Shown here: piece by piece, positions 5,570-55,957 of the stretch | Numbering within the stretch: the first letter of the stretch is position 1 | How the letters are laid out: every line of letters starts with the position of its first letter | Assembly (NCBI GenBank): GCA_023134715.1 | Contig: JAGLUP010000002.1 | Coordinates: 15,906 to 79,905 of the forward strand | Direction: 5' to 3' | Source: Candidatus Parcubacteria bacterium | GTDB taxonomy: Bacteria; Patescibacteriota; Minisyncoccia; Minisyncoccales; JAGLUP01 | Length of the DNA: 64,000 bases | Notes under the pieces: generated by a model | What the model was told of the DNA's origin: nothing | What the model saw: only the letters and a program-made list of their open reading frames with translations | Databases searched by the model: none | Program-made: the position numbers and the translations under genes

Positions 5570-5665
5570 TAATCAGGCGGATTTATGTAACAGTTTAAAA
5601 TTTTTTTGATTGTCTCAATTCATTCCTTATGGCATTGGGGCAATCTGTAAAGATTTTAAAAAATT

Positions 5666-9489: not shown

Positions 9490-9495
9490 AATATT

Positions 9496-30628: not shown

Positions 30629-30657
30629 TTAACTAATTAAGAATATTGTTGTATAAT
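30629..30657 (+). promoter_or_regulatory. Promoter of the SepRS-SepCysS operon (near-leaderless)
   Basis: TTAACT, 17 nt, TATAAT. The ATG lies only 9 nt after the -10 element. Confidence 0.45.
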
Positions 30658-30666
30658 AAAAATACT

Positions 30667-32205
30667 ATGGATAATGATAAAATAAAAAATAAAGGGTTGT
30701 GGGATATTAAAAAATTAAAAGAGAAAAAGGAAAAAGATTTTGAAAAAACATGGCTTGAAACAGCCAAGCTTTTACCGAGAAATACCCATCTTAAATTAAA
30801 AAACAAAGGAACGCCGAATTTAGTCGCAGAGATGATAGAAAAATCAAGAAAAATTCTTTTAAATGCTGGCTTTAGAGAAGTGATAAATAAAACTATTTTA
30901 CCTGAAGATGATATTTATAAACAATATGGCCCGGAGAGTCCTTTAATTTTAGATAGAACCTATTATCTCGCGACCCCATCTAAGCCAGATATAGGATTAA
31001 GCAAAAAGAGAATTGAGGAAATAAGCAAAATAATAGGAAGTTTTACTTCGGAAAAATTGCAAAACATATTGCGCGACTATAAAAAGGGAATAATAGAGGG
31101 AGACGATTTAATTGAAGAAATAGTTAATAAACTTAAGATAAAGCCAGAACAGGCTACGGCAATAATTGAAAAGGTTTTTCCAGAATTTAAAAAAAATAGA
31201 CCGGTTTGTTCTAATCTAACATTAAGGGGGCATATGACAGCTACTTGGTATCATACTCTTGCCGCCCTTCAAGACAAAGAGGAATTTCCAATAGCGTTAT
31301 TTTCTGTCGGGCCTCGCTATAGAAACGAACAAAGAGAGGATTTCAGCCATCTTTGCGTCCATAATTCCGCTTCTATGGTAATTATGGATCCTGAAATAAG
31401 CATTGAAGCAGGCAGAAAAATTACAAAAGAAATTTTAAAAGAATACGGCTTTAAGGACGCAAAATTTGAGAAAAAAAAGGCAACTGCAAAATATTACGCG
31501 CCGGAACAAGAAGAAGAAGTATTTGTGAAAAAATTCGGAAAGTGGATTGAAATAGCAAATATAGGAATGTATTCTCCAATCTCTTTGGCAAATTTTAAAA
31601 TTCGCTATCCTGTGTTTAATGCTGGCTTTGGCATAGAAAGATTAGCTATGGTGTTAGAAAATATCAAAGATATAAGAAAACTTGTTTATCCTCAATTTTA
31701 TGAAAAAGAATATACTGATGAAGAAATAGCTGAATCCATCAGTTATATAAAAGAGCCCTCTACTTTAAAGTGTAAAAAAATAGCCGAGTCAATAGAAAAA
31801 ACAGCAAGGAAAGAAAAAGATGAAGCATCTCCTTGCGAAATTGAAGCATATAAAGATAATTCAATTAAAGTGGAAATTATAGAAAAGGAAGAAAATAAAA
31901 AATTAATTGGTCCCGCCGGACTAAATTATATTTGCGTAAAAGATGAAAATATATATCCAGATATTTCTCAATCTGGAATTCCGACAGGGAAATCTTATAT
32001 TTCAGGCATAGCTAACGCGATTGCATACGAGATTGAAAAAGGAAATATCCCGTTTGCGCTTAAAGTTAAAACAGTAAAGGGGCTTTCTGATATTAATATG
32101 AAAATTCCAAAACATATTAGAGATTATTTAGAGGGAAAAGGAAAAAAAATCGGTTTAAGCGGATATGCGTTTGTGGAAATCCAAGTTAAAAAAAATAAAA
32201 AATGA
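30667..32205 (+). CDS. sepS: O-phosphoseryl-tRNA(Cys) ligase (SepRS)
   Basis: Collinear with archaeal SepRS as I recall it: DFEKTWLET, DIYKQYGPE, LDRTYYLA, PDIGLS, YKKGIIEGDDL, VFPEFK, LTLRGHMT, HNSAS, KYYAPEQEEEV, GFGIERLAMV, VYPQFYE. The start is set to ATG 30667 (the track gives TTG 30646). Confidence 0.85.
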   Translation: MDNDKIKNKGLWDIKKLKEKKEKDFEKTWLETAKLLPRNTHLKLKNKGTPNLVAEMIEKSRKILLNAGFREVINKTILPEDDIYKQYGPESPLILDRTYYLATPSKPDIGLSKKRIEEISKIIGSFTSEKLQNILRDYKKGIIEGDDLIEEIVNKLKIKPEQATAIIEKVFPEFKKNRPVCSNLTLRGHMTATWYHTLAALQDKEEFPIALFSVGPRYRNEQREDFSHLCVHNSASMVIMDPEISIEAGRKITKEILKEYGFKDAKFEKKKATAKYYAPEQEEEVFVKKFGKWIEIANIGMYSPISLANFKIRYPVFNAGFGIERLAMVLENIKDIRKLVYPQFYEKEYTDEEIAESISYIKEPSTLKCKKIAESIEKTARKEKDEASPCEIEAYKDNSIKVEIIEKEENKKLIGPAGLNYICVKDENIYPDISQSGIPTGKSYISGIANAIAYEIEKGNIPFALKVKTVKGLSDINMKIPKHIRDYLEGKGKKIGLSGYAFVEIQVKKNKK

Positions 32206-33302
32206 TATACAAAAGACAAAACAAAAATAAAATAAATATTAATCCTATTCAAGCCGGGGGAATCTTAACACAAGACGCAAAGAAAACGCTTATTGAGTGG
32301 GGAGATGGTTATTCAGTATGTGATATTTGGTATAGCGGAAAAATTGATAAAATAGAAAATCCGCAAATCAGAAAATTTATTGATGAAGCTCTGCCAAAAT
32401 TTCTCGGAAGCGACATTGTAAGAATAATAGGAGGGGCAAGAGAAGGAATATGCGCTATTATGCGCGCTGTGACAAAGCCAGGAGATACTATTTTAATAGA
32501 CGAAAATAAACATTACACAACCGTGCTTGCCGCTGAAAAAAACGACTTAAAGGTTATTGAAGTTCCAAACTCTGGACACCCTCAATATAAAATTGATGTT
32601 AAAGATTATGAAAAATTAATAAAAAAACATAAGCCAGCTTTAATTTTATTAACTTATCCAGACGGAAATTATGGAAATATGCCAGACGCAAAAAAACTTG
32701 GAGAAATCGTTTCAAAATATAATATTCCTTATTTATTAAACGCCGCTTATTCCGCGGGAAGGTTGCCTGTTAGCTTAAGCGCTATTAACGCAGATTTTAT
32801 AGTCACATCCGGACATAAAAGCATGGCTTCTTCCGAGCCCATTGGAATATTGGGTTTTAGAAAAAAATGGAAAGATATTTTATTTAAAAAATCTTCTTTT
32901 TATCCTGATAAAGAAATTGAATTTTTAGGCCATTATCAGAAAGGCGCGCCGATGATGACTTTAATGGCTTCTTTTCCTTATGTTGTAAAACGAGTAAAGA
33001 ATTGGGAAGAACAAGTGGAAAAAGCAAGATGGTTTTCAGCTGAAATGGAAAACCTTGGTTTTAAGCAATTGGGTGAAAAACCGCATAACCATGACTTGCT
33101 TTTTTTTGAAAGCCCTCAGCTTTATAAAATCTCGCAAAAACACAAAGATGGAAGATTTTTTCTTTATAAAGAACTAAAAAAGAATGGAATTTATGGAATA
33201 AAGCCAGGACTAACTAAATATTTTAAACTTTCAACATTTGCCGCGTCAAAACAAGACCTGCAAAAGATATTAAAAACTTTTGAAGAAATATTAAGAAAAT
33301 AA
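32202..33302 (+). CDS. pscS: Sep-tRNA:Cys-tRNA synthase (SepCysS), PLP-dependent
   Basis: ININPIQAGGILT, EWGDGYSVCD and SGHKSM (PLP lysine). Its ATGA overlaps the SepRS stop. Confidence 0.85.
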   Translation: MIYKRQNKNKININPIQAGGILTQDAKKTLIEWGDGYSVCDIWYSGKIDKIENPQIRKFIDEALPKFLGSDIVRIIGGAREGICAIMRAVTKPGDTILIDENKHYTTVLAAEKNDLKVIEVPNSGHPQYKIDVKDYEKLIKKHKPALILLTYPDGNYGNMPDAKKLGEIVSKYNIPYLLNAAYSAGRLPVSLSAINADFIVTSGHKSMASSEPIGILGFRKKWKDILFKKSSFYPDKEIEFLGHYQKGAPMMTLMASFPYVVKRVKNWEEQVEKARWFSAEMENLGFKQLGEKPHNHDLLFFESPQLYKISQKHKDGRFFLYKELKKNGIYGIKPGLTKYFKLSTFAASKQDLQKILKTFEEILRK

Positions 33303-38716: not shown

Positions 38717-38723
38717 TATTGAT

Positions 38724-38790
38724 AGTTCTTTAAATAACAAAAAACCCTCCTTCGTTAAAAACTATGGAGGGCAAAGAAAGAAAGAGAAAA
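38724..38790 (+). repeat. Cassette 5' module (AGTTCTTTAAATAA, CCCTCC..GGAGGG hairpin, purine tract), copy C1
   Basis: Shared with 45940-46015 and 46643-46719. Confidence 0.75.
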
Positions 38791-42954: not shown

Positions 42955-43415
42955 TTCCTGAATTAAAAATTTTCTTAATCGCTATGACTCCATTCGGAGA
43001 ACTAAGAGCGGCGATTCCAATTGCTCTTGAGATTTATAAGCTTCCAATTTGGTCAGCTTATTTTTGGTCGGTTTTAGGAAATTTAGTGCCTGTAATTTTA
43101 ATTTTAAAAGGATTAAAAATAACTTCAGAATACCTTTCTCACAGGATTTATTTTTTTAATAGATTTTTCGCCTGGCTTTTTGAAAGAACCAGAAATAATC
43201 ATGCTCAAAAAGTTAAAAAATGGAAAGAATGGGTATTGATAGCTTTAGTAGCTATTCCATTGCCTTTTACCGGAGCGTGGACTGGAAGTTTAGTTGCTTT
43301 TGTTTTTGGATTTCCTTTTAGAAAAGCGTTTCCTTTAATTGTTCTTGGCGTAATGATTGCTGGAATTATTGTAACTTTTACGACTTTGCTGATAACTAAA
43401 GGATTAACCCCTTGA
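42951..43415 (+). CDS. Small multidrug-export-like membrane protein (COG2426-type)
   Basis: MIPELKIFLIAMTPFGELRAAIPIAL. Its ATGA overlaps the ATPase stop. The product has four hydrophobic helices. Confidence 0.6.
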   Translation: MIPELKIFLIAMTPFGELRAAIPIALEIYKLPIWSAYFWSVLGNLVPVILILKGLKITSEYLSHRIYFFNRFFAWLFERTRNNHAQKVKKWKEWVLIALVAIPLPFTGAWTGSLVAFVFGFPFRKAFPLIVLGVMIAGIIVTFTTLLITKGLTP

Positions 43416-43518
43416 CATTTTTTCGCTTTATGATATAATTATAATTGTTAAGGAGAGAGAAACTGATTTTAGTATATTGACGAAAAACAGACCTCTCCCT
43501 TAGATGTCTGTTTTTCTT
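43412..43518 (+). promoter_or_regulatory. Promoter plus ~75-nt terminated leader/sRNA, copy 2
   Basis: TTGACA-16-TATAAT. The transcribed part is nearly identical to copy 1. Confidence 0.55.
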
Positions 43519-43668
43519 TATTGATAGTTCTTTAAGTAAAAAAAAGAAAGAGAAATGAAATCTTCAGGGCAGTAAATTGATAATTAATAATTAATTATTA
43601 GCTTAATGCTCTGAAGAAATTTGATAATGTCAGGTTTTCTGGTGATGGCAGATATATTGAGGTAAAAA

Positions 43669-44004
43669 ATGGATACAAAATGGAAAATATTATGGATAAT
43701 AGTGGTCTTGGGATTGCTTGCGATATACCCTGTTGCGCTTCATACAAGCGGGACCAGTAAGGAAATAACAGTGAAAGAAAAATGGGTGAAATACCACAGA
43801 GAAGATGCTAAATATTTATTCTCCGATGAAGAGAATAATGTATATAGTATTGAAGATTCTATTTGGCTTATAAAATTTGATGCGTCAGATAGATATGCAA
43901 AGATAACAGAAGGAAAGAGATATCTTATCAAAACATATGGCTGGAGAATTCGGATATTATCATCCTATTCAAATGCTATGGGAATTACTGAAATATCTAA
44001 CTAA
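43669..44004 (+). CDS. Small membrane-anchored protein, cassette 2
   Basis: GAGGTAAAAA before the ATG. The product has an N-terminal TM helix and is followed by a 3' module. Confidence 0.65.
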   Translation: MDTKWKILWIIVVLGLLAIYPVALHTSGTSKEITVKEKWVKYHREDAKYLFSDEENNVYSIEDSIWLIKFDASDRYAKITEGKRYLIKTYGWRIRILSSYSNAMGITEISN

Positions 44005-45939: not shown

Positions 45940-46015
45940 AAATAAAAAAAACAGTTCTTTAAATAAAAAAACCCTCCTTCGTTAAAACTATGGAGGGCAA
46001 AGAAAGAAAGAGAAA
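45940..46015 (+). repeat. Cassette 5' module, copy C3
   Basis: AAATAAAAAAAACAGTTCTTTAAATAAAAAAACCCTCCTTCGTTAAAACTATGGAGGGCAAAGAAAGAAAGAGAAA. Confidence 0.8.
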
Positions 46016-46132
46016 TGAAATCTTCAGGGCAGTGAATTGATAATTAAACAATTAATTGTCAGTTTAATGCTCTGAAGAAATCTGATAATGTCAGATTTTC
46101 TGGTGACGGCAGATATATATTGAGGTGAAAGA

Positions 46133-46552
46133 ATGGATATTGGTCTTATTAGCAGTATGGCAATACTTTTTCTACTTGGAATGGTAGGATTGGCAAATGC
46201 GACACTTGCAGAAGAAAAAAATAGACGAGCTGTGTCCGCTGGAATTGGAATGATTGCGTGGCTTGCCCTTGGTGCCACAGCTACGACTCAAGTAATGGAT
46301 GCAGGTTCTCCAGCAGGGATTGATGAGCTAAAGATCGGTGGAGAATATCATGTCAATTATGTAGAGTATTCTTGCGCATCGATTGACTTGCTCCTTCAGG
46401 CAGTAGAAGAGGATGAAGAGAAGACAGAACCAATACATGTAAGGATAGAAAGATCAAGGAGACAAGACTACTTGAATCAACATGATATGGTTATTGTGAC
46501 GAACGAGAAAAATCTAAAAATTACCCGTCGTCATGATAACGCAATGGGCTAA
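46133..46552 (+). CDS. Small membrane protein, cassette 3
   Basis: GAGGTGAAAGA before the ATG. The product has two N-terminal hydrophobic helices and is followed by a 3' module. Confidence 0.65.
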   Translation: MDIGLISSMAILFLLGMVGLANATLAEEKNRRAVSAGIGMIAWLALGATATTQVMDAGSPAGIDELKIGGEYHVNYVEYSCASIDLLLQAVEEDEEKTEPIHVRIERSRRQDYLNQHDMVIVTNEKNLKITRRHDNAMG

Positions 46553-46642: not shown

Positions 46643-46719
46643 AAATAAAAAAAACAGTTCTTTAAATAAAAAAACCCTCCTTCGTTAAAACTATGGAGGG
46701 CAAAGAAAGAAAGAGAAAA
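46643..46719 (+). repeat. Cassette 5' module, copy C4
   Basis: Identical core to 45940-46015. Confidence 0.8.
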
Positions 46720-47150: not shown

Positions 47151-47774
47151 TCATTCTCTTCTTTGGAGAGCGCTTTTAAGGGTTTCCTTATCAGCATATT
47201 CTAATTCCGCGCCAGTCGGCAAACCGCGGGCGAGGTGAGTAATTTTCCTGCCTAACGGCTTTAAAGCGCGCTCTAAATAAAGTATTGTCGCTTCACCTTC
47301 TGTGGTCGGATTTAAAGCTAAAATTATTTCTTTGAAATTAGCTTTTTTTATTCTCTGAATCAACTCCTTTATTCTTAATTTTTCAATATCTTGCTTTTTA
47401 AGGGTTGAAACCGTGCCTCCTAAAACAAAATAAAAACCTTTATAAGTTTTTGTTTTTTCAATTGAGATTAAATCAGTTTCTTTTTCTACTATGCAAAGCA
47501 GGGTCTTATCTCTTCTCGGGTCTAAACAAATCTCACAAAATTTCTGGTCTCCCTCATAAGAATTAAAGCAAAACGTACAAATTTTTATCGCTTTTTTTAA
47601 TTCTAAAATTGAATTAGTTAAATTCTCAACTTTCTCTACGGGAAGATGGATTAAATAAAAAACAAAGCGAGCTGCTGTGCGCGGTCCAATCGTGGGAAAT
47701 TTACTAAATTCATCAATAAGTTTCTGCTTTTTCATATTTTTCAATAGTTCGGAAACAAGCTCTTTGTTCGTCAA
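47151..47774 (-). CDS. recR: Recombination protein RecR
   Basis: FPTIGPRTAARF HhH motif, Cys4 Zn finger CTFC..CEIC and a Toprim region. The alternative start at 47735 fits the usual N-terminal length better. Confidence 0.85.
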   Translation of the reverse strand: MTNKELVSELLKNMKKQKLIDEFSKFPTIGPRTAARFVFYLIHLPVEKVENLTNSILELKKAIKICTFCFNSYEGDQKFCEICLDPRRDKTLLCIVEKETDLISIEKTKTYKGFYFVLGGTVSTLKKQDIEKLRIKELIQRIKKANFKEIILALNPTTEGEATILYLERALKPLGRKITHLARGLPTGAELEYADKETLKSALQRRE

Positions 47775-49089
47775 AATATAATTTTATCATTCCTATGGGT
47801 CCATTCCTATGCTTGGCAATAAGAATTTCAGCAACGTTTTTCTCGGCATCGTCTTTATATCTATCCGGCCGATGAATAAATAAAACCACATCCGCGTCCT
47901 GTTCCAATGCGCCGGATTCGCGAAGATCAGACAAGCGAGGAATTGGAGGAGTGCGCTGTTCCACTGCCCGAGAAAGCTGGGAAAGAGCTAAAACAGGTAT
48001 ATTAAGCTCGCGAGCCAGACCCTTCAAAGACCTTGAGATTTCAGTCATCTGCTGGACTGTGCTTAAATGCGGACTCCGAGATTCCATCAATTGCAAGTAA
48101 TCAACAACAATCATGCCCAGCCCATGGCTGGCTTGAAGCCGCCTTGCCATTGCCCTCATTTGTAAAATACCAGAAGTAGCCGCATCATCAATAAAAATCG
48201 GCACTTCAGATAAAACACCGATTGCCTGGTTGATTCTGCTAAAATCATTATTTTCTCCTTCGCTGGAGAGACGGCCAGTTCTTAATCGCCATAAATCAAT
48301 ATTAGCGTGAGAAGCAATCAATCTGTCCACTATTTGGTCTTTTGCCATCTCTAAGCTAAAAATTCCTACCGGCAATTTTTCCTTAGTGGCAATATGGCGG
48401 GCAATATCAAGAGATAAAGAGGATTTTCCAAAACTTGGCCTTGAAGCAAGAATTATAAGGTCTGACTTTTGTAATCCGGCTAAAACATTATCAAGGTCTT
48501 TAAATCCAGTTGAAAGCCCTCTTAAATTCTGTCCGTGCTTTGAAAGCTCATCTATTCTTTCAAAGGCCTCTTCTAATGTGCTTTTTATCGGCACAAAGGC
48601 CTGGCTAAGAGATTTTTGAGCTATGCTGAAAACTTTTTTTTCCGCTTCGTCTAAAAGCAAATCAACATCTTCTGTTTCTTTATAGCCCATAGAGCCAATA
48701 TCCTGGCCGACTTCAATTAAACTCCGCAAAATTCTCTTTCTTTGAACAATCTTAGCGTAATTTGAAACATTAGAAGCAGTGGGAACAGAGTTTATTAAAT
48801 CAGTTAAATAGCTTCTTCCCCCGATTTGTTCTAATTGATTTTTTTCTCTAAGTATATTAGTAACCGATACCAAATCAATTGGCTCACTTTTTTCAAAAAG
48901 CTCAAGTATTGTCTGAAAAATTTTCTGATGAATGTTTTTATAAAAATCGCGAACAGTTAAAAAATCAGCTACTTTAATAATAGCGTCTTTGTCTAACATC
49001 AAAGACCCCAGCAAACATTGTTCTGCTTCAATATTCTGAGGCGGCAATCTATCAGGCAATTCAAGATTTTTTGGAGAATTATCGTTCAT
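47713..49089 (-). CDS. dnaB: Replicative DNA helicase DnaB
   Basis: PPQNIEAEQCLLGSLM N-terminus, Walker A SRPSFGKSS and Walker B IVVDYLQL. Confidence 0.9.
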   Translation of the reverse strand: MNDNSPKNLELPDRLPPQNIEAEQCLLGSLMLDKDAIIKVADFLTVRDFYKNIHQKIFQTILELFEKSEPIDLVSVTNILREKNQLEQIGGRSYLTDLINSVPTASNVSNYAKIVQRKRILRSLIEVGQDIGSMGYKETEDVDLLLDEAEKKVFSIAQKSLSQAFVPIKSTLEEAFERIDELSKHGQNLRGLSTGFKDLDNVLAGLQKSDLIILASRPSFGKSSLSLDIARHIATKEKLPVGIFSLEMAKDQIVDRLIASHANIDLWRLRTGRLSSEGENNDFSRINQAIGVLSEVPIFIDDAATSGILQMRAMARRLQASHGLGMIVVDYLQLMESRSPHLSTVQQMTEISRSLKGLARELNIPVLALSQLSRAVEQRTPPIPRLSDLRESGALEQDADVVLFIHRPDRYKDDAEKNVAEILIAKHRNGPIGMIKLYFDEQRACFRTIEKYEKAETY

Positions 49090-49223
49090 ATCTTTATCTT
49101 TCAGTATATCTAATCTTTAAAAAATTTCAACCCTTTACAAAAACTTAAAATCAAGTATGCTTAAATTAGTTCAATGAGAAGAGAATGCTCTTTAAGAACT
49201 GAAAATTAAAAGAGGTGATAAAA

Positions 49224-50495
49224 ATGATAGCTGAAGCTATAATGACTAAAAAATCTATAAATGAAAAACCTGCATGTCCGGACTGCGGAAGTAGGCAAAC
49301 AATAACTGACTATAAACATGGTGAAATAATTTGTAAGTGTGGTTTGGTTTTAAATGATACATTATTTAATTTCGGACCCGAGACAAGAGCATACGACCAG
49401 GAAAAAATGGATAAAGTAGCGAGAACTGGCAGTCCTTTAAAATTTGCCAAACAAAATTTAGGATTGACGACAGAAATAGATCATTATGATAGAGATATTT
49501 TGGGAAGATCAATTCCAACTGAAAGAAAAGCTCAACTCTATCGTCTAAGGAAATGGCAAAGAAGAGCAAGAATGGGAACATCTGTTGACAGAAATCTTTC
49601 TATAGCATTGCCAGAGCTTGATAGAATGTGCGGACATTTAAACATTCCCAATAATATCAAGGAAGAATGCGCTCAGCTTTATAGAAAATGCGTAAAAGAA
49701 AGAATAGTCAGAGGAAGATCAATAGAAAGCGTAGTCGCGGCAGTAATATATTTAATATCAAGACAGCGTAAGCTTCCAAAAATCCTTGATGAGTTGGAAA
49801 GTGTGTCTGGCGTCAAGAAAAAAGATATTGGAAGGAGTTATAGAATAATTTGCAGAAGAATGAAGATAAGAATGCCAGTGACTACGGCGGCAGATTATAT
49901 ATCGAGATTAGCAAGCAAAGCAGGGGTCTCGGGAGAAACACAAGCAAAGGCGATAGAAATACTTGAGAAAGCAAGAAAAGACGGAACGATAAGCGGAAGA
50001 GTGCCTATAAGCATGGCGGCGGCAGGAATATATTTAGCCGCAGAAATGACGGGAGACGAGAATGCCAAACAAATTAAAGGAATTTCAGGTGTTTCTGAGA
50101 TGGGAATAAAAAATAGATATAACGAACTAAAAAGATTTATTGACAGAGACAATGGAATAGAAGTATTGCTTGAAGAAGAGATAGAAACATTAGATGATAT
50201 GCTGGGGAAGGTAGAAAAGAAAAAGATTCTGCTAAAATTTGCCGATGAGTTAGAGTTGTCAGACGAAACAAAAAAAGAAGCAGTTGAGATTCTGGAAAAA
50301 GTTATGGAAAATGGCTTTAAGCTGGATCCAAGAAAAAATATCAATGGATACATAGAAGCGGCAATTTATCTTAGCGCCATGGACAATGAAAAAATTTCTC
50401 TATGGAAGATAGAAAAGGTTACCAAAACTTCAAGCACAATAATCTGGGATAGGAAAGAAAAAATAAAAAAAGCGTTAATAGGAATAGAGCAATAA
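49224..50495 (+). CDS. Archaeal-type transcription factor B (TFB/TFIIB)-like protein, paralogue 1
   Basis: Zn ribbon CPDCGS..CKCG, GPETRAYD, YRLRKWQRR, two cyclin-fold repeats (RGRSIESVVAAVIYL, IGRSYR, AIEILEKA, AAAGIYLAA, IKNRYNEL) and a ~100-aa C-terminal extension. SD AAAAGAGGTGATAAAA precedes ATG 49224. Confidence 0.85.
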   Translation: MIAEAIMTKKSINEKPACPDCGSRQTITDYKHGEIICKCGLVLNDTLFNFGPETRAYDQEKMDKVARTGSPLKFAKQNLGLTTEIDHYDRDILGRSIPTERKAQLYRLRKWQRRARMGTSVDRNLSIALPELDRMCGHLNIPNNIKEECAQLYRKCVKERIVRGRSIESVVAAVIYLISRQRKLPKILDELESVSGVKKKDIGRSYRIICRRMKIRMPVTTAADYISRLASKAGVSGETQAKAIEILEKARKDGTISGRVPISMAAAGIYLAAEMTGDENAKQIKGISGVSEMGIKNRYNELKRFIDRDNGIEVLLEEEIETLDDMLGKVEKKKILLKFADELELSDETKKEAVEILEKVMENGFKLDPRKNINGYIEAAIYLSAMDNEKISLWKIEKVTKTSSTIIWDRKEKIKKALIGIEQ

Positions 50496-50575
50496 ATTGC
50501 TCTTTTTTTTTGATTTTAAATCACTCTATCTAAAATTTACCTTGCCAAACAAATGAGTCTGTGATAGTATTATTA

Positions 50576-50610
50576 CAGTAATTTGACAATTATATAATTA
50601 ATAATTACTG
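50576..50610. promoter_or_regulatory. Nested palindrome upstream of the second TFB-like gene
   Basis: CAGTAATT-tgac-AATTATATAATT-aat-AATTACTG. The inner 12-mer is a perfect palindrome. Confidence 0.35.
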
Positions 50611-50639
50611 ATGAATGAAAAATAAAAGAGGTGATAATA

Positions 50640-51896
50640 ATGAATAAATGTAAAGGTTGCGGAGGTTCAGAAAAAATCACAGACTATAAACATGGTGAAA
50701 TACTTTGCAAAAAGTGTGGTTTGGTTTTGAATGATGCGCTATTTGATACTGGACCCGAATGGAGAGCATTTGACAAAGAACAATCAGATAAACGAGCGAG
50801 AACAGGCGGCCCTTTAAAATTTGCCAAACTAAATTTAGGTTTAACAACAGAGATAGACAAATACGACAGAGACATTTTAGGAAAACCGGTTCCCACTATA
50901 AGAAAAGCAAAACTCTACAGATTGAGATACTGGCAAAGAAGGTCAAGAATGGGAACATCTGTTGACAGGAATCTTTCTATAGCATTGCCTGAATTAGATA
51001 GGATGTGCGCGTATCTCAACATTCCCAACAATATTAAGGAGGAATGCGCCCAGCTTTACAGAAAATGCGTAAACAAGAAAATAATCAAGGGAAGGTCAAT
51101 AGAAAGCGTAATTGCCGCAACAATATATCTGATTTCCCGAAATCATAAAATGCCAAAAACTCTTGAAGAGCTTGAAAATGTGGCAGGTGTAAAGAAGAGG
51201 GATATTGGAAAGAGTTATAGAACAATCTGCAGAAGATTGGGCATAAAAATGCCAGTGATTACAGCCGTGGATTATGTGCCAAGATTAGCAAGTGAAGCAG
51301 GAATTTCCGGGGAAACAACAGCCATAGCAATGAAAATGCTTGAAGACACAAGAGAATCTGGAGCGATAGCAGGCAAGGTGCCTATAAGCATGGCAGCTGC
51401 AGGCGTATATTTAGCCGCAAGAATAACAGGAGATAAAAAGTGTCAAAAGATTAAAAGTATTGCAGGTATTTCTGAATCTGCGATAAAAAGCAGATACGTC
51501 GAGCTTGAAAAAATTATTAATGGAGAAGTATTGCTTGAAGATATTGACACGGGGATTACAGAAAAAAGAAAACCTGAAGAAGAGCCGACATTAGATGATA
51601 TGTTATGGAAGATAGAAAAGAAAAAGATTCTGCTAAAATTTGCCGATGAGCTAAGATTATCAGACAAAACAAAAAAAGAAGCAGTTGAGATTCTGGGAAA
51701 AGTTATGGAAAATGACTTTAAGCTGGATCCAAGGGAAAATATCAATGGATATTTAGGAGCGGCAATTTATCTGGCAGACAAAAACAATGATAGAAAATGC
51801 AAGCAAAAGGGAATTGCGCTCATTGTCGGCGTATCAGTTCCGACAATTTCATACAAAGGAAAAATAATAGAGGGGAAACTCTCTTCTTTTTTTTGA
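50640..51896 (+). CDS. Archaeal-type transcription factor B (TFB/TFIIB)-like protein, paralogue 2
   Basis: CKGCGG..CKKCG, GPEWRAFD, YRLRYWQRR, KGRSIESVIAATIYL, IGKSYR. The C-terminal extension is nearly identical to that of paralogue 1. Confidence 0.85.
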   Translation: MNKCKGCGGSEKITDYKHGEILCKKCGLVLNDALFDTGPEWRAFDKEQSDKRARTGGPLKFAKLNLGLTTEIDKYDRDILGKPVPTIRKAKLYRLRYWQRRSRMGTSVDRNLSIALPELDRMCAYLNIPNNIKEECAQLYRKCVNKKIIKGRSIESVIAATIYLISRNHKMPKTLEELENVAGVKKRDIGKSYRTICRRLGIKMPVITAVDYVPRLASEAGISGETTAIAMKMLEDTRESGAIAGKVPISMAAAGVYLAARITGDKKCQKIKSIAGISESAIKSRYVELEKIINGEVLLEDIDTGITEKRKPEEEPTLDDMLWKIEKKKILLKFADELRLSDKTKKEAVEILGKVMENDFKLDPRENINGYLGAAIYLADKNNDRKCKQKGIALIVGVSVPTISYKGKIIEGKLSSFF

Positions 51897-51949
51897 TTTT
51901 TGGAAAATATATGATATTATAAAATTATAATAAGCTTAAAAATAATTTT

Positions 51950-52549
51950 ATGAATATAAAAAAACAGGATATAATTGCGGCTTTTATAATCGGCGAAGCA
52001 GACGCTTTGCTTATGATTCTAATTGCTAAAAATATTGGCTGGGACTTTGATTTAATTAAATTCACGCCAATTATTTTGCCAGTTTTAGCTGTTTTAGGAA
52101 TTATTTTCGCTAATTACTTAGGAAAAAAGATTTTAGCTATTTTCCAAGCAGCTAAATTTGCTTTAACCGGAACATTGAATACTTTTATTGATTTAGGCGT
52201 GTTAAACCTTTTAATGTTAGTTTTTGGTGTAAGCTCTGGAATGCTTTATTCGGTGTTTAAAGGAATGTCTTTTATCGCAGCCACAATTAATAGCTATCTT
52301 TGGAATAAATTCTGGACCTTTGAAAAGAAAGAAACAGCAGTTTCCACAAAAGAATCTTCCCAATTTTTTGCTGTTGCCGGCATAGGCCTTATAATAAATG
52401 TTGCTGTTGCTTCTTTTGTGGTAAATATTATAGGCCCTCAATTTGGAATCTTCCCAGAACTCTGGGCAAACATTGGCGGAGTTATTGCTACGCTTACTGC
52501 TATGTTCTGGAATTTTGTTGGCTATAAATTCATTGTGTTTAAAAAATAA
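51950..52549 (+). CDS. GtrA-family membrane protein
   Basis: FALTGTLNTFIDLGVLNLL, NSYLWNKFWTF and C-terminal FWNFVGYKFIVFKK. Confidence 0.75.
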   Translation: MNIKKQDIIAAFIIGEADALLMILIAKNIGWDFDLIKFTPIILPVLAVLGIIFANYLGKKILAIFQAAKFALTGTLNTFIDLGVLNLLMLVFGVSSGMLYSVFKGMSFIAATINSYLWNKFWTFEKKETAVSTKESSQFFAVAGIGLIINVAVASFVVNIIGPQFGIFPELWANIGGVIATLTAMFWNFVGYKFIVFKK

Positions 52550-52551
52550 TT

Positions 52552-53670
52552 ATGTCATTAGCTTTATATAGAAAATACAGGCCAAAAACCTTTGCCGAAA
52601 TTATCGGGCAGGAGCATATTGTTAAAACTTTAACTAACGCGCTCTCTTCAGAAATGATTTCCCACGCTTATTTATTTACAGGCCCTCGCGGCTGCGGCAA
52701 AACCACAATAGCTCGTTTATTGGCTAAAGCGGCAAATTGTGAAACCCGAAAACCAAATGAATTTGAGCCCTGCAATAAATGCTCTTCCTGTATTGAAATT
52801 AATGAAAGCAGGTCAATTGACTTAATTGAAATTGACGCGGCTTCTCACAGGGGAATTGACGATATAAGAGAAATAAGACAGGGGATTAAGTTTGCTCCCA
52901 CAAAATCAAAATACAAAATTTTTATTATTGACGAATGCCATCAGTTAAGCAAAGACGCGGCAAACGCTTTACTGAAAACATTGGAAGAGCCGCCAGCTCA
53001 CGCTATTTTTATTTTAGCCACAACAGAAATTCAAAAAATGATTGCGACAATTCTTTCCAGATGCCAGCGATTTGATTTCTGGAACCTGACCATGCCGCAA
53101 ATCATCCAACGATTAGAATTTCTTTCTGAAAAAGAAAAAATAAAAATTGAAAAGCCGGCTTTAGAGCTTATTGCTTTGCAGGCAAGGGGATCTATCAGAG
53201 ACGCTGAAAGCTTGCTTGACCAGGTTATTAGTTTTTCCAGCGCTTTAGACCAGAAAGCGGAAATAAAAACACAAGAAATTAAAGATTTATTGGGAATTGT
53301 TGATTTAAGTTCAGTTTCGCAATTCGTTGATTTTCTTGTTGAAAAAAACATTTCTAAAACAATCAACTATTTGCAGGAAATTCTGGAAAAAGGCAAAGAC
53401 CCGCAGGAATTTACTAAAACCTTGATTAGTTATTTAAGGCAGGGACTGCTTTTAAAAATCAGCCCTGATATGCAAAATCATCTAAGTATTGGCTTAACAA
53501 AAGAAGAACTACAAAAACTTCAAAATCAAGCAAATGGTTTTTCAGAGCAGGAATTGCAAAAACTTTTACAACTTTTTTTAAAAGCGGAAAACCAAATAAA
53601 ATATTCTTCAATCCCTCAACTGCCAATAGAATTGGCAATCGTTGAGGCGATTGGCTTGGAGAAAGAATAG
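52552..53670 (+). CDS. dnaX: DNA polymerase III subunit gamma/tau (short form)
   Basis: ALYRKYRPKTFAEIIGQEH, GPRGCGKTT, Zn module CNKCSSC, IIDECHQL and SRCQRF. Confidence 0.9.
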   Translation: MSLALYRKYRPKTFAEIIGQEHIVKTLTNALSSEMISHAYLFTGPRGCGKTTIARLLAKAANCETRKPNEFEPCNKCSSCIEINESRSIDLIEIDAASHRGIDDIREIRQGIKFAPTKSKYKIFIIDECHQLSKDAANALLKTLEEPPAHAIFILATTEIQKMIATILSRCQRFDFWNLTMPQIIQRLEFLSEKEKIKIEKPALELIALQARGSIRDAESLLDQVISFSSALDQKAEIKTQEIKDLLGIVDLSSVSQFVDFLVEKNISKTINYLQEILEKGKDPQEFTKTLISYLRQGLLLKISPDMQNHLSIGLTKEELQKLQNQANGFSEQELQKLLQLFLKAENQIKYSSIPQLPIELAIVEAIGLEKE

Positions 53671-53726: not shown

Positions 53727-54410
53727 ATGGCTAAACTCAAAGAAAAAGAAAAAGCGATAAAACTTAGAAAAAAAGGGCGTTCCTATTCTGAAATTTTAAA
53801 ACAAATTCCGGTAGCTAAATCTACCTTATCTTTATGGCTAAGAAGTGTTGGATTGGCTCAACCTCAAAAGCAAAGACTTACTGAAAAAAGAAAACGGGCA
53901 TTAGAAAGAGGAGTGAAAGTAATCCGAGAAAAAAGGATCCTGTTGGTAAAAAAAATTAAGGAAAACGCTAAACAAGAAGTCAATAAAATTACTAAAAGAG
54001 AGTTATGGCTTATTGGGATTGCTTTATATTGGGCAGAGGGCGCTAAACAAAAAGAAACTAATGTTTCAGAAGGGGTATCTTTCGGTAATTCTGACCCAAA
54101 AATGATAACACTTTTCCTCAATTGGATTTATACGACTTGCGATCTCAGCCCTAATAATCTTAGTATAAGATTATATATTCACAAAACAGCCAATGCTGAA
54201 AAAGCAATAAAATTTTGGTCATCTGCTACCAAGATACCAATTTATAAATTTAAAAAAACTGTTTTTAAAAAGCATAAACCGAGAACGAATCGACGAATTA
54301 ATAAAAATTATCAAGGTTTAGTAAAAATCACTATTAAGAAAAGCACAAATTTTAATAGAAAAATAACAGGCTGGATTGAAGGAATTTGTGAAAATTGCGA
54401 GATCGTCTAA
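53727..54410 (+). CDS. HTH-containing protein with possible LAGLIDADG-like endonuclease core (tentative)
   Basis: N-terminal HTH-like RKKGRSYSEILKQIPVAKSTLSLWLR; LWLIGIALYWAEGAK resembles a LAGLIDADG block. The last 15 nt overlap tRNA-Gln. Confidence 0.35.
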   Translation: MAKLKEKEKAIKLRKKGRSYSEILKQIPVAKSTLSLWLRSVGLAQPQKQRLTEKRKRALERGVKVIREKRILLVKKIKENAKQEVNKITKRELWLIGIALYWAEGAKQKETNVSEGVSFGNSDPKMITLFLNWIYTTCDLSPNNLSIRLYIHKTANAEKAIKFWSSATKIPIYKFKKTVFKKHKPRTNRRINKNYQGLVKITIKKSTNFNRKITGWIEGICENCEIV

Positions 54411-54466
54411 TGGTAGGACACCACCCTTTGAAGGTGGTTATCTAGGTTCGAGTCCTAGTCTCGCAG
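54396..54466 (+). tRNA. tRNA-Gln (anticodon UUG)
   Basis: Acceptor TGCGAGA/TCTCGCA (U1-A72), anticodon stem CCACC/GGTGG with loop CTTTGAA, T-arm CTAGG-TTCGAGT-CCTAG. Confidence 0.85.
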
Positions 54467-55957
54467 CATTAAAGGATAATTCAATTTTTTAGGCCTGTCC
54501 TCGCCCTTTTGCTTTTTTCCGGCCCGGGCTTGATTATTGAATTTTAAGAGTATTTTCCATGCTTTGAGGGGAGTGAACAATATCTCCCGCTCTCGCAAAA
54601 GAGGGTTCGAGCCAATCTTTTTTAGGAAATTTTTCTTTTCTGAAAAATTTCCTCGCAAAGCAATAATTTGGGCTTGTTTTGCCTCTAAAATGAATTTTTT
54701 GGCGGGTTTGAGCCAATGATTATCCTTTTGCTCAAAATTAGTTAATTTCTGTTCATTCTCAATTTTCTGATTGAGAATTTTTTCTTTTTTAGCGAGGTAT
54801 TCATCTTTAGAAATTATACCTTCAAGATGAGCGTCTAAAAGTTTGTCTAATCTATTCTGACAATTCTCAATTTCATTTTTTAAATTTTGAGCAAAAGAGA
54901 ATTTGGCTTGGGCATTTTCTTTTTCATCTGTATCAAGATTTTCAATCATTTCATCCGCCCAAGCCGAATTTAAAGAAACTTTTTGAATGATGTTTGAAAT
55001 CTGCTCGGCCAAAAGTTCCTCGCGGATATATTTTTGAGAACAGGGGACACGCTTTTTTGTGCATCGGTAGTAGTTATGTCCTTTCTGCGTCTCAGAAGTA
55101 ATAGAACAGCCGCATTCAGCGCATTTTAGCAATCCGCGAAAAGCGTATTCCTTTTGGCCTCGTTTGGTCTTGCGGGCTTTGGTTTTCATCACTTCTTGGC
55201 ATTTGTCAAAAAGTTTCTTTGAAATCATTGGCTTATGGCTTCCTTGATAAAGCTCGTTATTGAAGATAAACGCGCCATAATAAAATGGCCTAGATAAAAT
55301 AGCTTGAATATTACTGACGCTTAATATTTTGTTGTTTCGGCTCAACAAGCCCAAATCAGTTATTTTATTTCTTAAATCTTTCAGAGAATAATTTTCTGTT
55401 GAATAAAGTTCAAAAAGTTTTTTGACGAGGTGAAATCTTTTAGGGTCTTTAACTATTTTATGATTGACCTTATCGTTTATGTAACCAGTAGGGGCAACGC
55501 CGGGTAATTCGCCTCGTCTTACTTTTTGACGCAAACCTCTTTTTACATTCTCTGAAAGATTGTCAATATAGTATTTTGATTGCCCAAAAGCAATGTTCAG
55601 CATAAACTTGCCCTGCGGAGTAGGATTAAACCAGAAAGTAGGGAATTTTAGCTTTTTAATTTTTTCAGTATCAACCAAATAGATTATTCGTCCGCCGTCT
55701 ATTGAATTTCTCGCTAATCTGTCAGGGTGCCAAGCTAAAATTCCCGACGCTTTATTTTGTTCAATAAGCGAGAGCATTTCATTAAAAACAGGCCTGCCAG
55801 GATCTTTGGCTGTTTTGCATTCAATGAATGTCTGGATAATATCTAAACGCTCTCGCTTTGCAAATTCTTTCAGTTCCGTTATTTGGGCTTCAATGGAAAG
55901 AATTTGCCTGTCAGGTTCATCTGTTGATTTTCTCGCGTAGAGAAAGAATTTGTTCAT
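54455..55957 (-). CDS. Large serine recombinase/integrase
   Basis: N-terminal resolvase domain YARKSTDEPDRQILSIEAQ, recombinase domain, Zn ribbon CAECGC..YYRC and a coiled coil. The last codons run into the tRNA-Gln 3' end. Confidence 0.9.
   Translation of the reverse strand: MNKFFLYARKSTDEPDRQILSIEAQITELKEFAKRERLDIIQTFIECKTAKDPGRPVFNEMLSLIEQNKASGILAWHPDRLARNSIDGGRIIYLVDTEKIKKLKFPTFWFNPTPQGKFMLNIAFGQSKYYIDNLSENVKRGLRQKVRRGELPGVAPTGYINDKVNHKIVKDPKRFHLVKKLFELYSTENYSLKDLRNKITDLGLLSRNNKILSVSNIQAILSRPFYYGAFIFNNELYQGSHKPMISKKLFDKCQEVMKTKARKTKRGQKEYAFRGLLKCAECGCSITSETQKGHNYYRCTKKRVPCSQKYIREELLAEQISNIIQKVSLNSAWADEMIENLDTDEKENAQAKFSFAQNLKNEIENCQNRLDKLLDAHLEGIISKDEYLAKKEKILNQKIENEQKLTNFEQKDNHWLKPAKKFILEAKQAQIIALRGNFSEKKNFLKKIGSNPLLREREILFTPLKAWKILLKFNNQARAGKKQKGEDRPKKLNYPLMLRD
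54464..54623. repeat. Inverted repeat arm (P' arm); reverse complement of 56011-56178
   Basis: ~160 bp, one 9-nt indel and a few mismatches. It encodes the recombinase C-terminus on the minus strand. Confidence 0.85.

Follow-up and report, generated by a model that had tools for sequence, protein, structure and literature searches.

Tandem archaeal-type TFB genes with an added cyclin repeat at a recurrently occupied chromosomal locus of Parcubacteria

In archaeal transcription the zinc ribbon and B-linker of TFB bind the RNA polymerase and cyclin repeat 1 binds TBP/DNA, and the B-reader helps to set the start site in archaeal TFB and eukaryotic TFIIB alike. Archaeal multi-TFB systems include Pyrococcus TFB1/TFB2 and Sulfolobus TFB3. 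The TFB expansions of Halobacterium are another such system (PMC3261711). Together with TBP, TFB/TFIIB is a textbook marker of archaeal and eukaryotic initiation, and bacteria are held to lack both and to use sigma factors (PMC3597702, PMC3382729). No published report of a TFB in bacteria was found in the literature and no published role for one there, in agreement with the initial annotation of the present sequence, which knew of none established.

The window analysed here, a 64-kb stretch within a 224-kb contig that GenBank assigns to Candidatus Parcubacteria, carries a tandem pair of genes for proteins of this family, TFB-A followed by TFB-B on the plus strand. Both open reading frames are present as first described, both are named TFIIB by PGAP, and the pair sits between dnaB/recR and gtrA/dnaX:

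47713..49089, minus strand: dnaB, left edge of the locus (in relatives CysRS, and sometimes further genes, lie between dnaB and the TFB/GtrA position)
49224..50495, plus strand: TFB-A coding sequence, 423 aa, likely start ATG 49224 (MCK4781380.1 in GenBank starts at a later ATG)
50640..51896, plus strand: TFB-B coding sequence, 418 aa, likely start ATG 50640 (GenBank MCK4781381.1)
51950-52549, plus strand: gtrA, with dnaX the conserved right edge of the locus in all TFB-bearing relatives
52552-53670, plus strand: dnaX

That both are full-length TFB/TFIIB proteins of archaeal type, as initially proposed, is borne out by Pfam, NCBIfam, PDB sequence and structure-model matches. Profile searches for the zinc ribbon and the TFIIB cyclin domain, suggested at the outset as a check, recovered TFIIB-family domains above the Pfam cut-offs in both proteins: PF08271 (Zn_Ribbon_TF) scores 40.4 bits in TFB-A and 54.7 bits in TFB-B (cut-off 29), and PF00382 (TFIIB repeat) 140 and 136 bits (cut-off 23.6), over three stretches per protein. 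The full-length model NCBIfam NF001658 (PRK00423, transcription initiation factor IIB) gives 363.9 and 366.4 bits, narrowly below its curated cut-off of 384. Pyrococcus TFBc is the PDB sequence match (1D3U_B, E = 2e-42), and an AF2 model of TFB-A (pLDDT 81.5) has TFIIB/TFB structures as its Foldseek matches, including 1AIS_B with a TM of 0.81 and an rmsd of 2.9 Å. The Pfam scan found no significant sigma domain in TFB-A or TFB-B; in a relative, P0130, a sub-threshold Sigma70_r4 match covers the HTH of cyclin repeat 2 (E = 4e-4). The domains are arranged as follows:

49269..49358, plus strand: TFB-A zinc ribbon, PF08271 40.4 bits, atypical CxxC...CxC
49359..49469, plus strand: TFB-A B-reader, eroded (GPETRAY; W to T, R to V)
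49470..49580, plus strand: TFB-A B-linker, the best conserved segment, with 89% of donor-conserved positions kept
49581..50138, plus strand: TFB-A core, cyclin repeat 1 (49581-49877) and cyclin repeat 2 (49878-50138), AF2 pLDDT 87-97
50139..50198, plus strand: TFB-A acidic linker, predicted disordered, net charge -8, pLDDT < 50 at residues 312-328
50199..50492, plus strand: TFB-A third repeat, of cyclin-2 type by AF2, Foldseek and hhalign
50649-50735, plus strand: TFB-B zinc ribbon, canonical CxxC...CxxC
50736-50846, plus strand: TFB-B B-reader, GPEWRAF
50847-50957, plus strand: TFB-B B-linker
50958-51254, plus strand: TFB-B cyclin repeat 1
51255-51515, plus strand: TFB-B cyclin repeat 2
51516-51599, plus strand: TFB-B acidic linker
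51600-51893, plus strand: TFB-B third repeat, of cyclin-2 type

Of the ribbon and reader motifs listed initially, TFB-B has the canonical forms, and TFB-A has CxC instead of CxxC at its second zinc knuckle and GPETRAY for GPEWRAF; the four ribbon cysteines fall in invariant alignment columns. The C-terminal extension, thought from the first to resemble a third cyclin-like repeat, is confirmed as one. It forms five helices in the full-length model of TFB-A (pLDDT 72-92), its best PDB match when modelled alone is the Pyrococcus TFB core (Foldseek, 1D3U_B/1AIS_B, rmsd 1.7-1.8 Å), and hhalign gives it a probability of 95.7% against a cyclin-2 profile versus 7% against a cyclin-1 profile.

As far as can be read from the DNA, each gene has a bacterial-type candidate promoter, a Shine-Dalgarno region and a terminator-like hairpin:

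49134..49161, plus strand: candidate sigma-70-like promoter of TFB-A, TTTACA-16-TATGCT, a consensus match only, in the divergent spacer between dnaB and TFB-A
49209..49220, plus strand: Shine-Dalgarno region AAAGAGGTGATA of TFB-A, the match ending 4 nt before ATG 49224
50486..50511, plus strand: intrinsic-terminator-like hairpin and T-run of TFB-A, overlapping its stop codon
50542..50598, plus strand: candidate promoter region of TFB-B from a consensus scan, TTGCCA-17-TAGTAT with an extended TG, overlapping TTATTA-17-TATAAT
50576..50610, no strand: palindrome CAGTAATT-N19-AATTACTG, present, not significant
50625..50636, plus strand: Shine-Dalgarno region AAAGAGGTGATA of TFB-B, the match ending 4 nt before ATG 50640
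51869..51895, plus strand: intrinsic-terminator-like hairpin and T-run of TFB-B, overlapping its stop codon

Exact copies of AAAGAGGTGATA number three in the window (39893, 49209, 50625), against 0.43 expected. Upstream of P0051, the TFB of a sister lineage (L030), lies a region with 81% identity to the TFB-B promoter stretch (50542-50604). The palindrome reported before the second gene does exist, but nothing sets it apart: inverted repeats with 8-nt arms occur at 3.3 per kb across the window, at least one appears in 20% of shuffles of the spacer between TFB-A and TFB-B, and the right arm is missing from the sister lineage. It carries no evidential weight.

The best matches of TFB-A and TFB-B are Altiarchaeota TFBs, at 70-74% identity, and the loci found in GTDB (n = 27) are all archaeal; the titles of 21 name Altiarchaeota, Altiarchaeales or Altiarchaeia. 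A phylogeny against archaeal TFBs, proposed initially as a further check, places TFB-A, TFB-B, P0051 and the Altiarchaeota proteins in one group with other archaea outside (100/100 bootstraps), TFB-A and TFB-B being sisters in 91/100; all trees are neighbour-joining (distance only) and have long branches. From this nesting we infer that Altiarchaeota were the donor lineage. An Altiarchaeota-type TFB gene would have been captured by horizontal transfer and would then have gained extra core repeat(s). In the sister lineage the whole core is duplicated (cyc1-cyc2-cyc1'-cyc2'), and TFB-A/B have only cyc2' of the second core. Tandem duplication into TFB-A and TFB-B would have taken place at about the split of the two bacterial populations, and purifying selection, relaxed but real, would have maintained the genes since then, equipped with bacterial promoters, Shine-Dalgarno sites and terminators.

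The survey of CPR genomes recommended at the start found TFBs at the same locus, in the order CysRS, TFB, GtrA-DnaX, in at least five other Parcubacteria populations. P0051, in the sister population, lies directly upstream of GtrA-DnaX, and the DnaX there is 90% identical to that of the window; P0127, P0128, P0129 and P0130 lie between CysRS and GtrA. The latter four, only 30-36% identical to TFB-A/B, group as a separate clade in 100/100 bootstraps. Locus L117 has another, unrelated tandem TFB pair, whose second copy runs off the contig. None of the complete bacterial TFB open reading frames seen (n = 7) is disrupted. In the DnaX tree the lineages that carry TFBs do not group as sisters, and none of 25 related loci spanning dnaB to dnaX has a TFB at the syntenic site, CysRS being found in that interval instead. 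With at least two other bacterial TFB lineages beyond the TFB-A/B group, the locus appears to hold at least three different TFB lineages across related Parcubacteria, which suggests that acquisition or replacement recurred; for the second bacterial clade a single ancient acquisition with extreme rate variation may apply, given the long branches of the distance trees. Other TFBs at the same chromosomal spot in related bacteria indicate that bacteria took and kept an archaeal factor, and this recurrent, locus-specific presence in a Parcubacteria lineage is a new finding.

TFB-A and TFB-B share 69% protein identity and 77.6% DNA identity. Their extensions had been described as almost identical at the nucleotide level, which proved incorrect: high identity is confined to the tract below, and both proteins are most diverged over their last ~40 residues.

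50187..50371 (TFB-A) and 51588..51772 (TFB-B), plus strand: gene-conversion tract, 185 nt, ~91% nt identity

Within this tract third-codon identity is 0.90-0.93, compared with 0.5-0.67 elsewhere, and dS is 0.25, compared with about 0.9 in the rest of the genes. Gene conversion between the paralogues, as suggested, is therefore retained, over a stretch shorter and less identical than was claimed.

Omega is 0.26 between TFB-A and TFB-B and 0.22-0.32 between these and P0051, about 25 times the 0.01 found between Altiarchaeota orthologues at similar dS. By domain, the values for TFB-A versus TFB-B are 0.10 in the B-linker, 0.16 in cyclin 1, 0.27 in the N-terminus and 0.30 in cyclin 2. Amino-acid change in the bacterial TFBs is 6-10 times that of DnaX over the same divergence and > 50 times that between archaeal orthologues at similar dS. 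The bacterial TFBs are evolving far faster than their archaeal orthologues, yet remain under purifying selection. Retention, the share kept of positions at least 90% conserved in Altiarchaeota TFBs, is for TFB-A, TFB-B and P0051 respectively 100, 100 and 90% in the ribbon, 89, 84 and 92% in the linker, 91, 91 and 96% in cyclin 1, and 68, 84 and 48% in the B-reader. By this measure the parts best preserved are the RNA-polymerase-binding ribbon and linker, and cyclin 1, with the reader eroded in TFB-A and P0051.

CysRS has been lost from the TFB locus in this genome, and none was found in the 64-kb window. An archaeal-type route to Cys-tRNA is encoded upstream:

30646..33302, plus strand: SepRS-SepCysS operon (TIGR00470 443 bits, TIGR02539 501 bits, both above cut-off)

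This operon probably makes up for the lack of CysRS at the TFB locus. SepRS/SepCysS have a precedent in Parcubacteria (Mukai et al. 2017, PMC5424206), and SepRS is common in Altiarchaeales (PMC5424206). The occurrence of these archaeal genes in the same genome adds to the plausibility of an archaeal partner.

TFB-A and TFB-B truly belong to the chromosome of a Parcubacteria (CPR) bacterium. The bacterial character of the neighbourhood, stated initially, is upheld by the identification of RecR, DnaB, GtrA, DnaX, MraZ/MraW/PBP, L7/L12 and RmuC on the contig, with ribosomal protein L21 in the precomputed annotation of L001. An independent ENA assembly has the same arrangement over 21 kb (99.976% identity, 5 SNPs), and GC3 and synonymous codon use of both genes fall within the range of native genes, with the Altiarchaeota orthologues outside that range. 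The reading that an Altiarchaeota fragment was spliced into a bacterial contig during assembly or binning could appeal to the 74% identity with Altiarchaeota TFBs and to a contig check made at assembly level. However, its two junctions would have to recur in separate assemblies, in the sister population (four datasets), where synteny extends to a homologous promoter, and in four further lineages. It is also contradicted by the native codon use, the shared Shine-Dalgarno sequence and the bacterial terminator-like hairpins, and identity to Altiarchaeota sequences does not exceed 74%. A chimeric contig, already argued against on composition and ribosome-binding sites, is very unlikely, and the artefact reading is effectively refuted, with a negligible probability.

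The zinc ribbon, B-linker and cyclin 1 are preserved in donor-like form, and the available bacterial sequence contains no TBP or archaeal polymerase (no TBP or Rpo gene by Pfam among about 56 ORFs of the window), which makes docking on archaeal machinery the most likely role. We tentatively propose, at somewhat less than even probability, that TFB-A and TFB-B engage archaeal-type initiation machinery belonging to a partner archaeon. There are Parcubacteria in culture that live as host-specific parasites of archaea (PMC12281837). In such a setting the proteins would dock on the initiation machinery of the archaeon, a partner or a host cell, and in the case of this genome one of the Altiarchaeota. 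They would act inside it as competing or retargeting TFB mimics, and the flexibly tethered extra cyclin repeat would provide another surface for TBP/DNA-type binding. The proposal assumes that they are delivered into the archaeon: no signal-like N-terminus was seen in either protein on reading by eye, no secretion or translocation genes adjoin the pair, and we know of nothing that shows protein delivery by CPR bacteria into hosts. Conservation of the linker and cyclin 1 could instead result from a short time since transfer or from folding constraints. The B-reader of TFB-B is nearly intact, so that jamming alone would not suit the two proteins alike. A bolder version, in which an archaea-dwelling Parcubacteria lineage repeatedly steals the TFB of its current host, re-engineers it with extra cyclin repeats and an eroded B-reader, and jams or redirects the host RNA polymerase, is doubtful.

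The main rival to action on an archaeal partner is a regulator re-purposed inside the bacterium, binding DNA through the cyclin-repeat HTH or sitting at sigma's place on the bacterial RNA polymerase; it could be a repressor, a nucleoid protein or a competitor of sigma. Most proteins work in the cell that makes them, and on their respective polymerases TFIIB and sigma sit at topologically equivalent positions; a relationship between the two has been speculated upon (PMC3597702). The candidate bacterial promoters, Shine-Dalgarno sites, terminators and housekeeping neighbours, purifying selection maintained through a bacterial speciation, a rate acceleration that fits adaptation to new partners, and the weak, below-cut-off resemblance of the P0130 cyclin-2 HTH to sigma-70 region 4 all agree with such a role. 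It is nevertheless rather unlikely, as the ribbon and B-linker, sensible only on an archaeal polymerase, are the most conserved parts and have stayed donor-like rather than been remodelled; one vertical bacterial clade would be expected, whereas TFBs of different archaeal affinity occupy the same locus; and the TFB family binds DNA poorly without TBP, of which there is none in the window. That the genes are decaying passengers, archaeal DNA without current function in a permissive variable spacer, would account for their rapid amino-acid change, the eroded B-reader and CxC zinc knuckle of TFB-A, and the patchy distribution among relatives. This is improbable: useless DNA is normally lost quickly from small CPR genomes, and here all complete reading frames are intact, each alignable domain has an omega of 0.1-0.3, the lineages share a conserved promoter, codon use has ameliorated, and the outcomes of duplication, gene conversion and domain gain persist. 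Less probable still is that a mobile element or virus brought the TFBs as cargo when it integrated at a hot spot between dnaB/CysRS and gtrA. The dnaB-gtrA interval does vary in length and content among relatives, the same site is occupied by TFBs of different origin, and a serine recombinase and several repeat families occur elsewhere in the window, but the recombinase lies beyond dnaX, beside tRNA-Gln, as part of a separate element; an integrase, a transposase and att-like or terminal repeats are all absent on either side of 49.1-51.9 kb, and no relative was found among 2.9 million viral contigs.

TFB genes have thus been stably kept, duplicated, extended and apparently re-acquired at one locus of a bacterial lineage, under selection, which raises the directly testable question of what a basal archaeal initiation factor does for a bacterium. 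Action on an archaeal partner would amount to manipulation between domains of a new kind and would help to find, from genomes, the hosts of uncultured CPR bacteria; theft of host TFBs, if true, would be the first instance in which a cellular parasite mimics a basal transcription factor of another domain, and a genomic pointer to Altiarchaeota as CPR hosts. Action within the bacterium would provide a natural experiment on TFB with a bacterial polymerase and bear on the proposed deep relationship of sigma and TFB. Under either reading, the arrangement CysRS, TFB, GtrA-DnaX is a simple marker for surveying more genomes.

Among known systems, the closest are the 310-aa 'type 1' TFBs of Altiarchaeota/Altiarchaeales MAGs (e.g., P0004 and P0006; loci L002-L005 and L028), which share with TFB-A/B the collinear zinc ribbon, B-reader, B-linker and two cyclin repeats, 71-74% identity and a fully supported nesting (100/100), TFB-A also having the Pyrococcus TFBc fold (1AIS/1D3U). 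Unlike these, TFB-A/B are found in a bacterium, with bacterial-type signals, a third cyclin-2-type repeat behind an acidic linker, an omega ~25 times higher and scores under the NCBIfam TFIIB cut-off, and TFB-A has the eroded B-reader and CxC knuckle. Brf1 and Brf2, whose structures are among the Foldseek matches, likewise consist of a TFIIB core followed by a C-terminal module, but theirs is the Brf homology block and that of TFB-A/B a TFB-type cyclin repeat, so that the relationship is one of a shared core only. Phage-encoded sigma factors and the eukaryote-like effectors of Legionella mimic host factors, and offer a functional analogy only; the points in common are genes taken from or modelled on host machinery, with rapid evolution, paralogue expansion, domain additions and a source lineage that differs between related parasites. 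SepRS/SepCysS, like TFB-A/B, are archaeal information-processing genes in Parcubacteria, are functioning there, and have their operon in the same window; they are self-sufficient and act on the bacterium's own tRNA, whereas TFB depends on partners not known from bacteria. The paralogues of archaeal multi-TFB systems use the TBP and archaeal RNA polymerase of their own cell, and TFB-A/B are in a bacterium, with neither visible in the window. As in those systems, one paralogue has a canonical B-reader (TFB-B) and another a degenerate one (TFB-A), an analogy that suggests a division of labour between the two proteins.

The tandem archaeal-type TFB genes correspond to two open reading frames found by ORF scan:

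49215-50495, + strand: open reading frame of TFB-A
50631-51896, + strand: open reading frame of TFB-B

The start codons are most plausibly the ATGs at 49224 (TFB-A) and 50640 (TFB-B), and in both genes a match to AAAGAGGTGATA ends 4 nt ahead of the ATG. This motif, described in the initial annotation as a ribosome-binding site common to other genes of the window, occurs there in 3 exact copies, compared with 0.43 expected. Each gene also has a sigma-70-like promoter candidate, and its stop codon is overlapped by a hairpin and T-run (candidate terminator); both signals are consensus matches. A palindrome ahead of TFB-B (50576-50610), noted earlier, was dropped as an operator candidate because it is within chance expectation and is not conserved.

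The two proteins are 69% identical, and the full-length homology to TFB that had been proposed by eye was borne out by profile searches. The Pfam TFIIB repeat was recovered in three stretches per protein (140 bits in TFB-A and 136 bits in TFB-B; cut-off 23.6) and the TFIIB zinc ribbon once in each (40.4 and 54.7 bits; cut-off 29). The NCBIfam full-length TFIIB model aligned end to end with both at 364-366 bits, slightly below its cut-off of 384. By sequence, the best solved structure was Pyrococcus TFBc (1D3U_B, E = 2e-42), ahead of human and yeast TFIIB and Brf1. For TFB-A, the only protein modelled, the AlphaFold2 structure (pLDDT 81.5) can be superposed on the TFIIB chains of pre-initiation complexes and matches 1AIS_B with a TM-score of 0.81 and an rmsd of 2.9 A. 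TFB-A has threonine in place of tryptophan in GPEWRAF and a CxC knuckle; both features are canonical in TFB-B.

The host is bacterial, and the junction of the TFB genes with the contig is genuine. The window encodes L7/L12, MraZ, MraW, a PBP transpeptidase, RmuC, RecR, DnaB, DnaX and several bacterial-type aminoacyl-tRNA synthetases, in agreement with the bacterial neighbourhood first described; L21 is listed in the precomputed annotation of locus L001. In GenBank the proteins (MCK4781380.1, MCK4781381.1) are assigned to 'Candidatus Parcubacteria bacterium' on a 224-kb contig. That the TFB pair might be an assembly artefact is extremely improbable, given an independent ENA assembly (119-kb scaffold) in which window positions 40640-61896 recur with unchanged gene order and just 5 mismatches over 21,257 nt. 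The uniform composition noted earlier also argues against a chimera: GC3 (0.29 and 0.32) and synonymous-codon scores (-1.04 and -1.07; native mean -0.96, sd 0.058) of the two genes are inside the native range, whereas Altiarchaeota TFB orthologues score lower (-1.19 to -1.48). The promoter and terminator candidates at each gene point the same way.

Outside this genome, the nearest proteins are 310-aa Altiarchaeota TFBs, whose identity over the core is 70-74%. When one genome per GTDB species was scanned, 27 loci were recovered, all archaeal; the titles of 21 name Altiarchaeota, Altiarchaeales or Altiarchaeia, and no other bacterium with a matching TFB was found. Altiarchaeota have two TFB types, and the window pair resembles 'type 1'. 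Phylogeny against archaeal TFBs, by neighbour-joining and, like all trees here, distance-based with long branches, placed Altiarchaeota, TFB-A, TFB-B and P0051 (a 538-aa TFB of related bacteria) in one group in 100/100 replicates, with TFB-A and TFB-B as long-branched sisters (91/100). No TFB relatives were found in viral contigs. Neither flanking repeats nor an integrase were found around the TFB pair, which argues against its having been carried in as cargo of a mobile element, an origin that we regard as very unlikely.

The core of P0051 is fully duplicated (cyc1-cyc2-cyc1'-cyc2'). In four datasets, its gene is directly followed by GtrA, DnaX and a gene for 229 aa; DnaX and GtrA of this locus are 90% and 84% identical to those of the window, but the TFB is just 59% identical to TFB-A and 47% to TFB-B. 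Over 63 nt, the region upstream of P0051 and the TFB-B promoter region share 81% identity, which makes P0051 the positional orthologue of TFB-B. All four P0051 contigs (L029-L032) end 110-226 nt ahead of the gene, in sequence that is not recognisable. That four independent contigs stop within about 230 nt suggests a repeat or strain-variable region that breaks assemblies, possibly another TFB copy.

A DnaX scan of metagenome contigs identified 80 related loci (DnaX 48-71% identical) with the conserved order RecR(-) DnaB(-) ... CysRS(-) ... GtrA DnaX. None of the 25 loci spanning dnaB to dnaX contains a TFB; one shorter locus, L060, does encode a TFB, P0127, which has 445 aa and a third repeat. 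The 21-kb contig of this locus (L113) has P0127 between CysRS and GtrA-DnaX, within a broader block syntenic with the window (P-type ATPase, RmuC, L21, RecR, DnaB). Its closest relatives, P0128 (71%), P0129 (65%) and P0130 (55%), are bacterial by context, being divergent from CysRS or upstream of GtrA. These four form a second bacterial TFB clade, monophyletic in 100/100 replicates, that is 30-36% identical to TFB-A and TFB-B and 42-49% to Bathyarchaeia-like TFBs; its placement as sister to Altiarchaeota varies with the distance correction (22/60 versus 48-51/60). On L117 (181-2062) P0129 is followed in tandem by a partial TFB gene, about 41% identical to other archaeal TFBs. As the two share only about 30% identity, this tandem looks like the product of separate origins rather than of recent duplication. 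The lineages that carry TFBs do not group as sisters in the DnaX tree. A single site in related Parcubacteria has thus been entered, or taken over in turn, by at least two TFB lineages, probably three.

The DnaB gene of L113 (5255-7294, - strand) encodes 679 aa including an intein (Intein_splicing); the window's DnaB has 458 aa and no intein. The window's dnaX is followed by a gene for a 227-aa protein (53727-54410, + strand) that lacks a Pfam or NCBIfam match and is conserved in synteny at ten related loci and at L029/L030. In most of these its identity is just 45-54%, so its rate of evolution far exceeds that of DnaX (dN 0.37 vs 0.05).

The TFB pair stands at the position of CysRS, a gene that about 25 related Parcubacteria have retained in the dnaB-gtrA interval. 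CysRS is missing from this interval here (49090-51949) and from the whole window. The window also contains the following operon:

30646-33302, + strand: SepRS-SepCysS operon (SepRS, TIGR00470, 443 bits; SepCysS, TIGR02539, 501 bits)

These enzymes form the archaeal indirect Cys-tRNA pathway, whose activity in Parcubacteria is already documented; SepRS is common in Altiarchaeales (PMC5424206). The window's SepRS was not found in the fetched loci.

Behind cyclin repeat 2, both proteins have an acidic linker of 20-28 residues (net charge -7 or -8), poorly predicted around TFB-A residues 311-330 (pLDDT 41-46), and then a C-terminal extension modelled as a five-helix domain (pLDDT 72-92). The earlier view of this extension as a third cyclin-like repeat agrees with the isolated model, whose best match is the Pyrococcus TFB core (rmsd 1.7-1.8 A), ahead of TFIIB and cyclins, and with profile comparison, which assigns it to the cyclin-2 rather than the cyclin-1 type (probability 96%, E about 1e-8). 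The extension appears to have no close relatives outside the pair, because an exhaustive search of 1.8 billion representatives gave only six weak matches (E = 2e-7 to 9e-4), all short two-repeat TFB-like proteins aligned at their second cyclin repeat. An extension-only word search was empty and carries little weight, since even the query protein was missed. Comparison with the third repeat of P0127, made to see whether the extension is an old bacterial one whose core was exchanged, revealed generic cyclin-level similarity only. Eight longer relatives (P0057, P0058, P0060, P0061, P0063, P0066, P0069, P0092) have Lys-rich N-terminal extensions rather than a third repeat, and apparent matches to the extension in L018 and L022 were tblastn run-on into the adjoining gene.

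The extension had been described as almost identical between the paralogues at the nucleotide level. High identity is instead confined to one tract in its first half; the ~40 C-terminal residues have diverged more than any other part of the proteins.

50187-50371 (TFB-A) and 51588-51772 (TFB-B): high-identity tract, 185 nt, about 91% identical

Third-codon identity in the tract is 0.90-0.93 and dS is 0.25, compared with roughly 0.9 for most of the remainder (0.73-1.46 by domain; two flanking C-terminal segments are saturated). This marks it as a gene-conversion tract; the initial annotation had suggested gene conversion or constraint.

Selection was estimated by the Nei-Gojobori method, with dS near saturation in several pairs. 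Omega is 0.26 for TFB-A versus TFB-B over the whole gene (B-linker 0.10, cyclin 1 0.16, N-terminus 0.27, cyclin 2 0.30) and 0.22-0.32 for either versus P0051, compared with 0.01 (dS 0.55) between the Altiarchaeota orthologues L003 and L028. DnaX of the window and L029 gave an omega of 0.08 (dS 0.62, dN 0.052); between the same lineages dN of the TFB core is 0.33 (TFB-A vs P0051). Retention was scored over the positions with at least 90% conservation among type-1 TFBs of Altiarchaeota, as the share of them that is kept.

Retention by domain in TFB-A, TFB-B and P0051
Zn ribbon: 100%, 100%, 90%
B-linker: 89%, 84%, 92%
Cyclin 1: 91%, 91%, 96%
Cyclin 2: 83%, 83%, 69%
B-reader: 68%, 84%, 48%

The omega values and domain retention indicate that TFB-A and TFB-B are not pseudogenes, yet are freed from the very strong constraint of an essential archaeal factor. 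Best protected are the part that docks on the polymerase and the first repeat, which faces TBP and DNA.

In TFB and TFIIB, the dock of the polymerase is contacted by the ribbon and its clamp coiled-coil by the linker, which also assists DNA opening; the reader sets the start site, and the cyclin core binds TBP-DNA. The omega and retention pattern, the donor-like surfaces and the repeated entry into sister bacteria of TFBs from different archaea fit continued engagement of archaeal-type machinery. No archaeal-type initiation machinery is visible within the 64-kb window, which is part of the genome, and bacteria are held to lack TBP (PMC3597702). For these two reasons we tentatively favour, at somewhat below even chance, action of the bacterial TFBs on the initiation complex of a partner archaeon, where they would serve as a competing or retargeting mimic; their delivery into the archaeon is an assumption. 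Host-specific parasitism of archaea by Parcubacteria is known in culture (PMC12281837). The main rival, a re-purposed DNA- or polymerase-binding regulator within the bacterium, is possible although rather doubtful, and decaying passenger genes are an improbable explanation of the pair.

The window contains several further elements. A large serine recombinase gene (54455-55957, - strand) abuts tRNA-Gln (54396-54467) and is bracketed by ~165-nt inverted repeats (54464-54623/56011-56178; 93% identical). Inverted repeats of 242 nt (56175-56416/63718-63959; 96.7% identical) bound a 7.8-kb segment, also present in the second assembly, with genes for an HTH protein, a D12-class adenine methyltransferase, a trypsin-like protease and several proteins without a family match; it may represent an integrated element. 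A geranylgeranyl-reductase-family gene (24605-25795; TIGR02032, 235 bits), flanked by 149-nt direct repeats (24412-24559/25849-25997; 98.7% identical), is followed by a terpene-synthase-like gene (26045-26983); both are unusual in a small CPR genome. A cluster of probable surface proteins (3993-11031) contains three paralogous camelysin/TasA-like (Peptidase_M73) proteins, one with a fused LamG domain, followed by one lamin-tail-domain protein and one carrying a purple-acid-phosphatase N-terminal-like domain. Several intergenic repeat families (76-141 nt, 90-100% identical) are dispersed over the window, one pair bracketing two small ORFs at 2151-2875:

581-662 and 2037-2118: intergenic repeat pair
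1824-1930 and 3033-3139: intergenic repeat pair
38611-38744 and 43412-43545: intergenic repeat pair
43539-43675 and 45999-46139: intergenic repeat pair
45940-46015 and 46643-46718: intergenic repeat pair

Full-text literature searches revealed no description of a bacterial TFB, in CPR or elsewhere, and the GenBank records of TFB-A and TFB-B carry an automatic name only. If the cross-domain reading is true, it would represent categorically new biology. Compared with known TFBs, the proteins agree in domains and fold; they fall narrowly short of the curated full-length cut-off, and their host is neither archaeal nor eukaryotic. As judged from their sequences, what appears to be new is the occurrence of bacterial, extended and fast-evolving TFBs at a conserved locus, with the domains and fold being those of the known TFB family.
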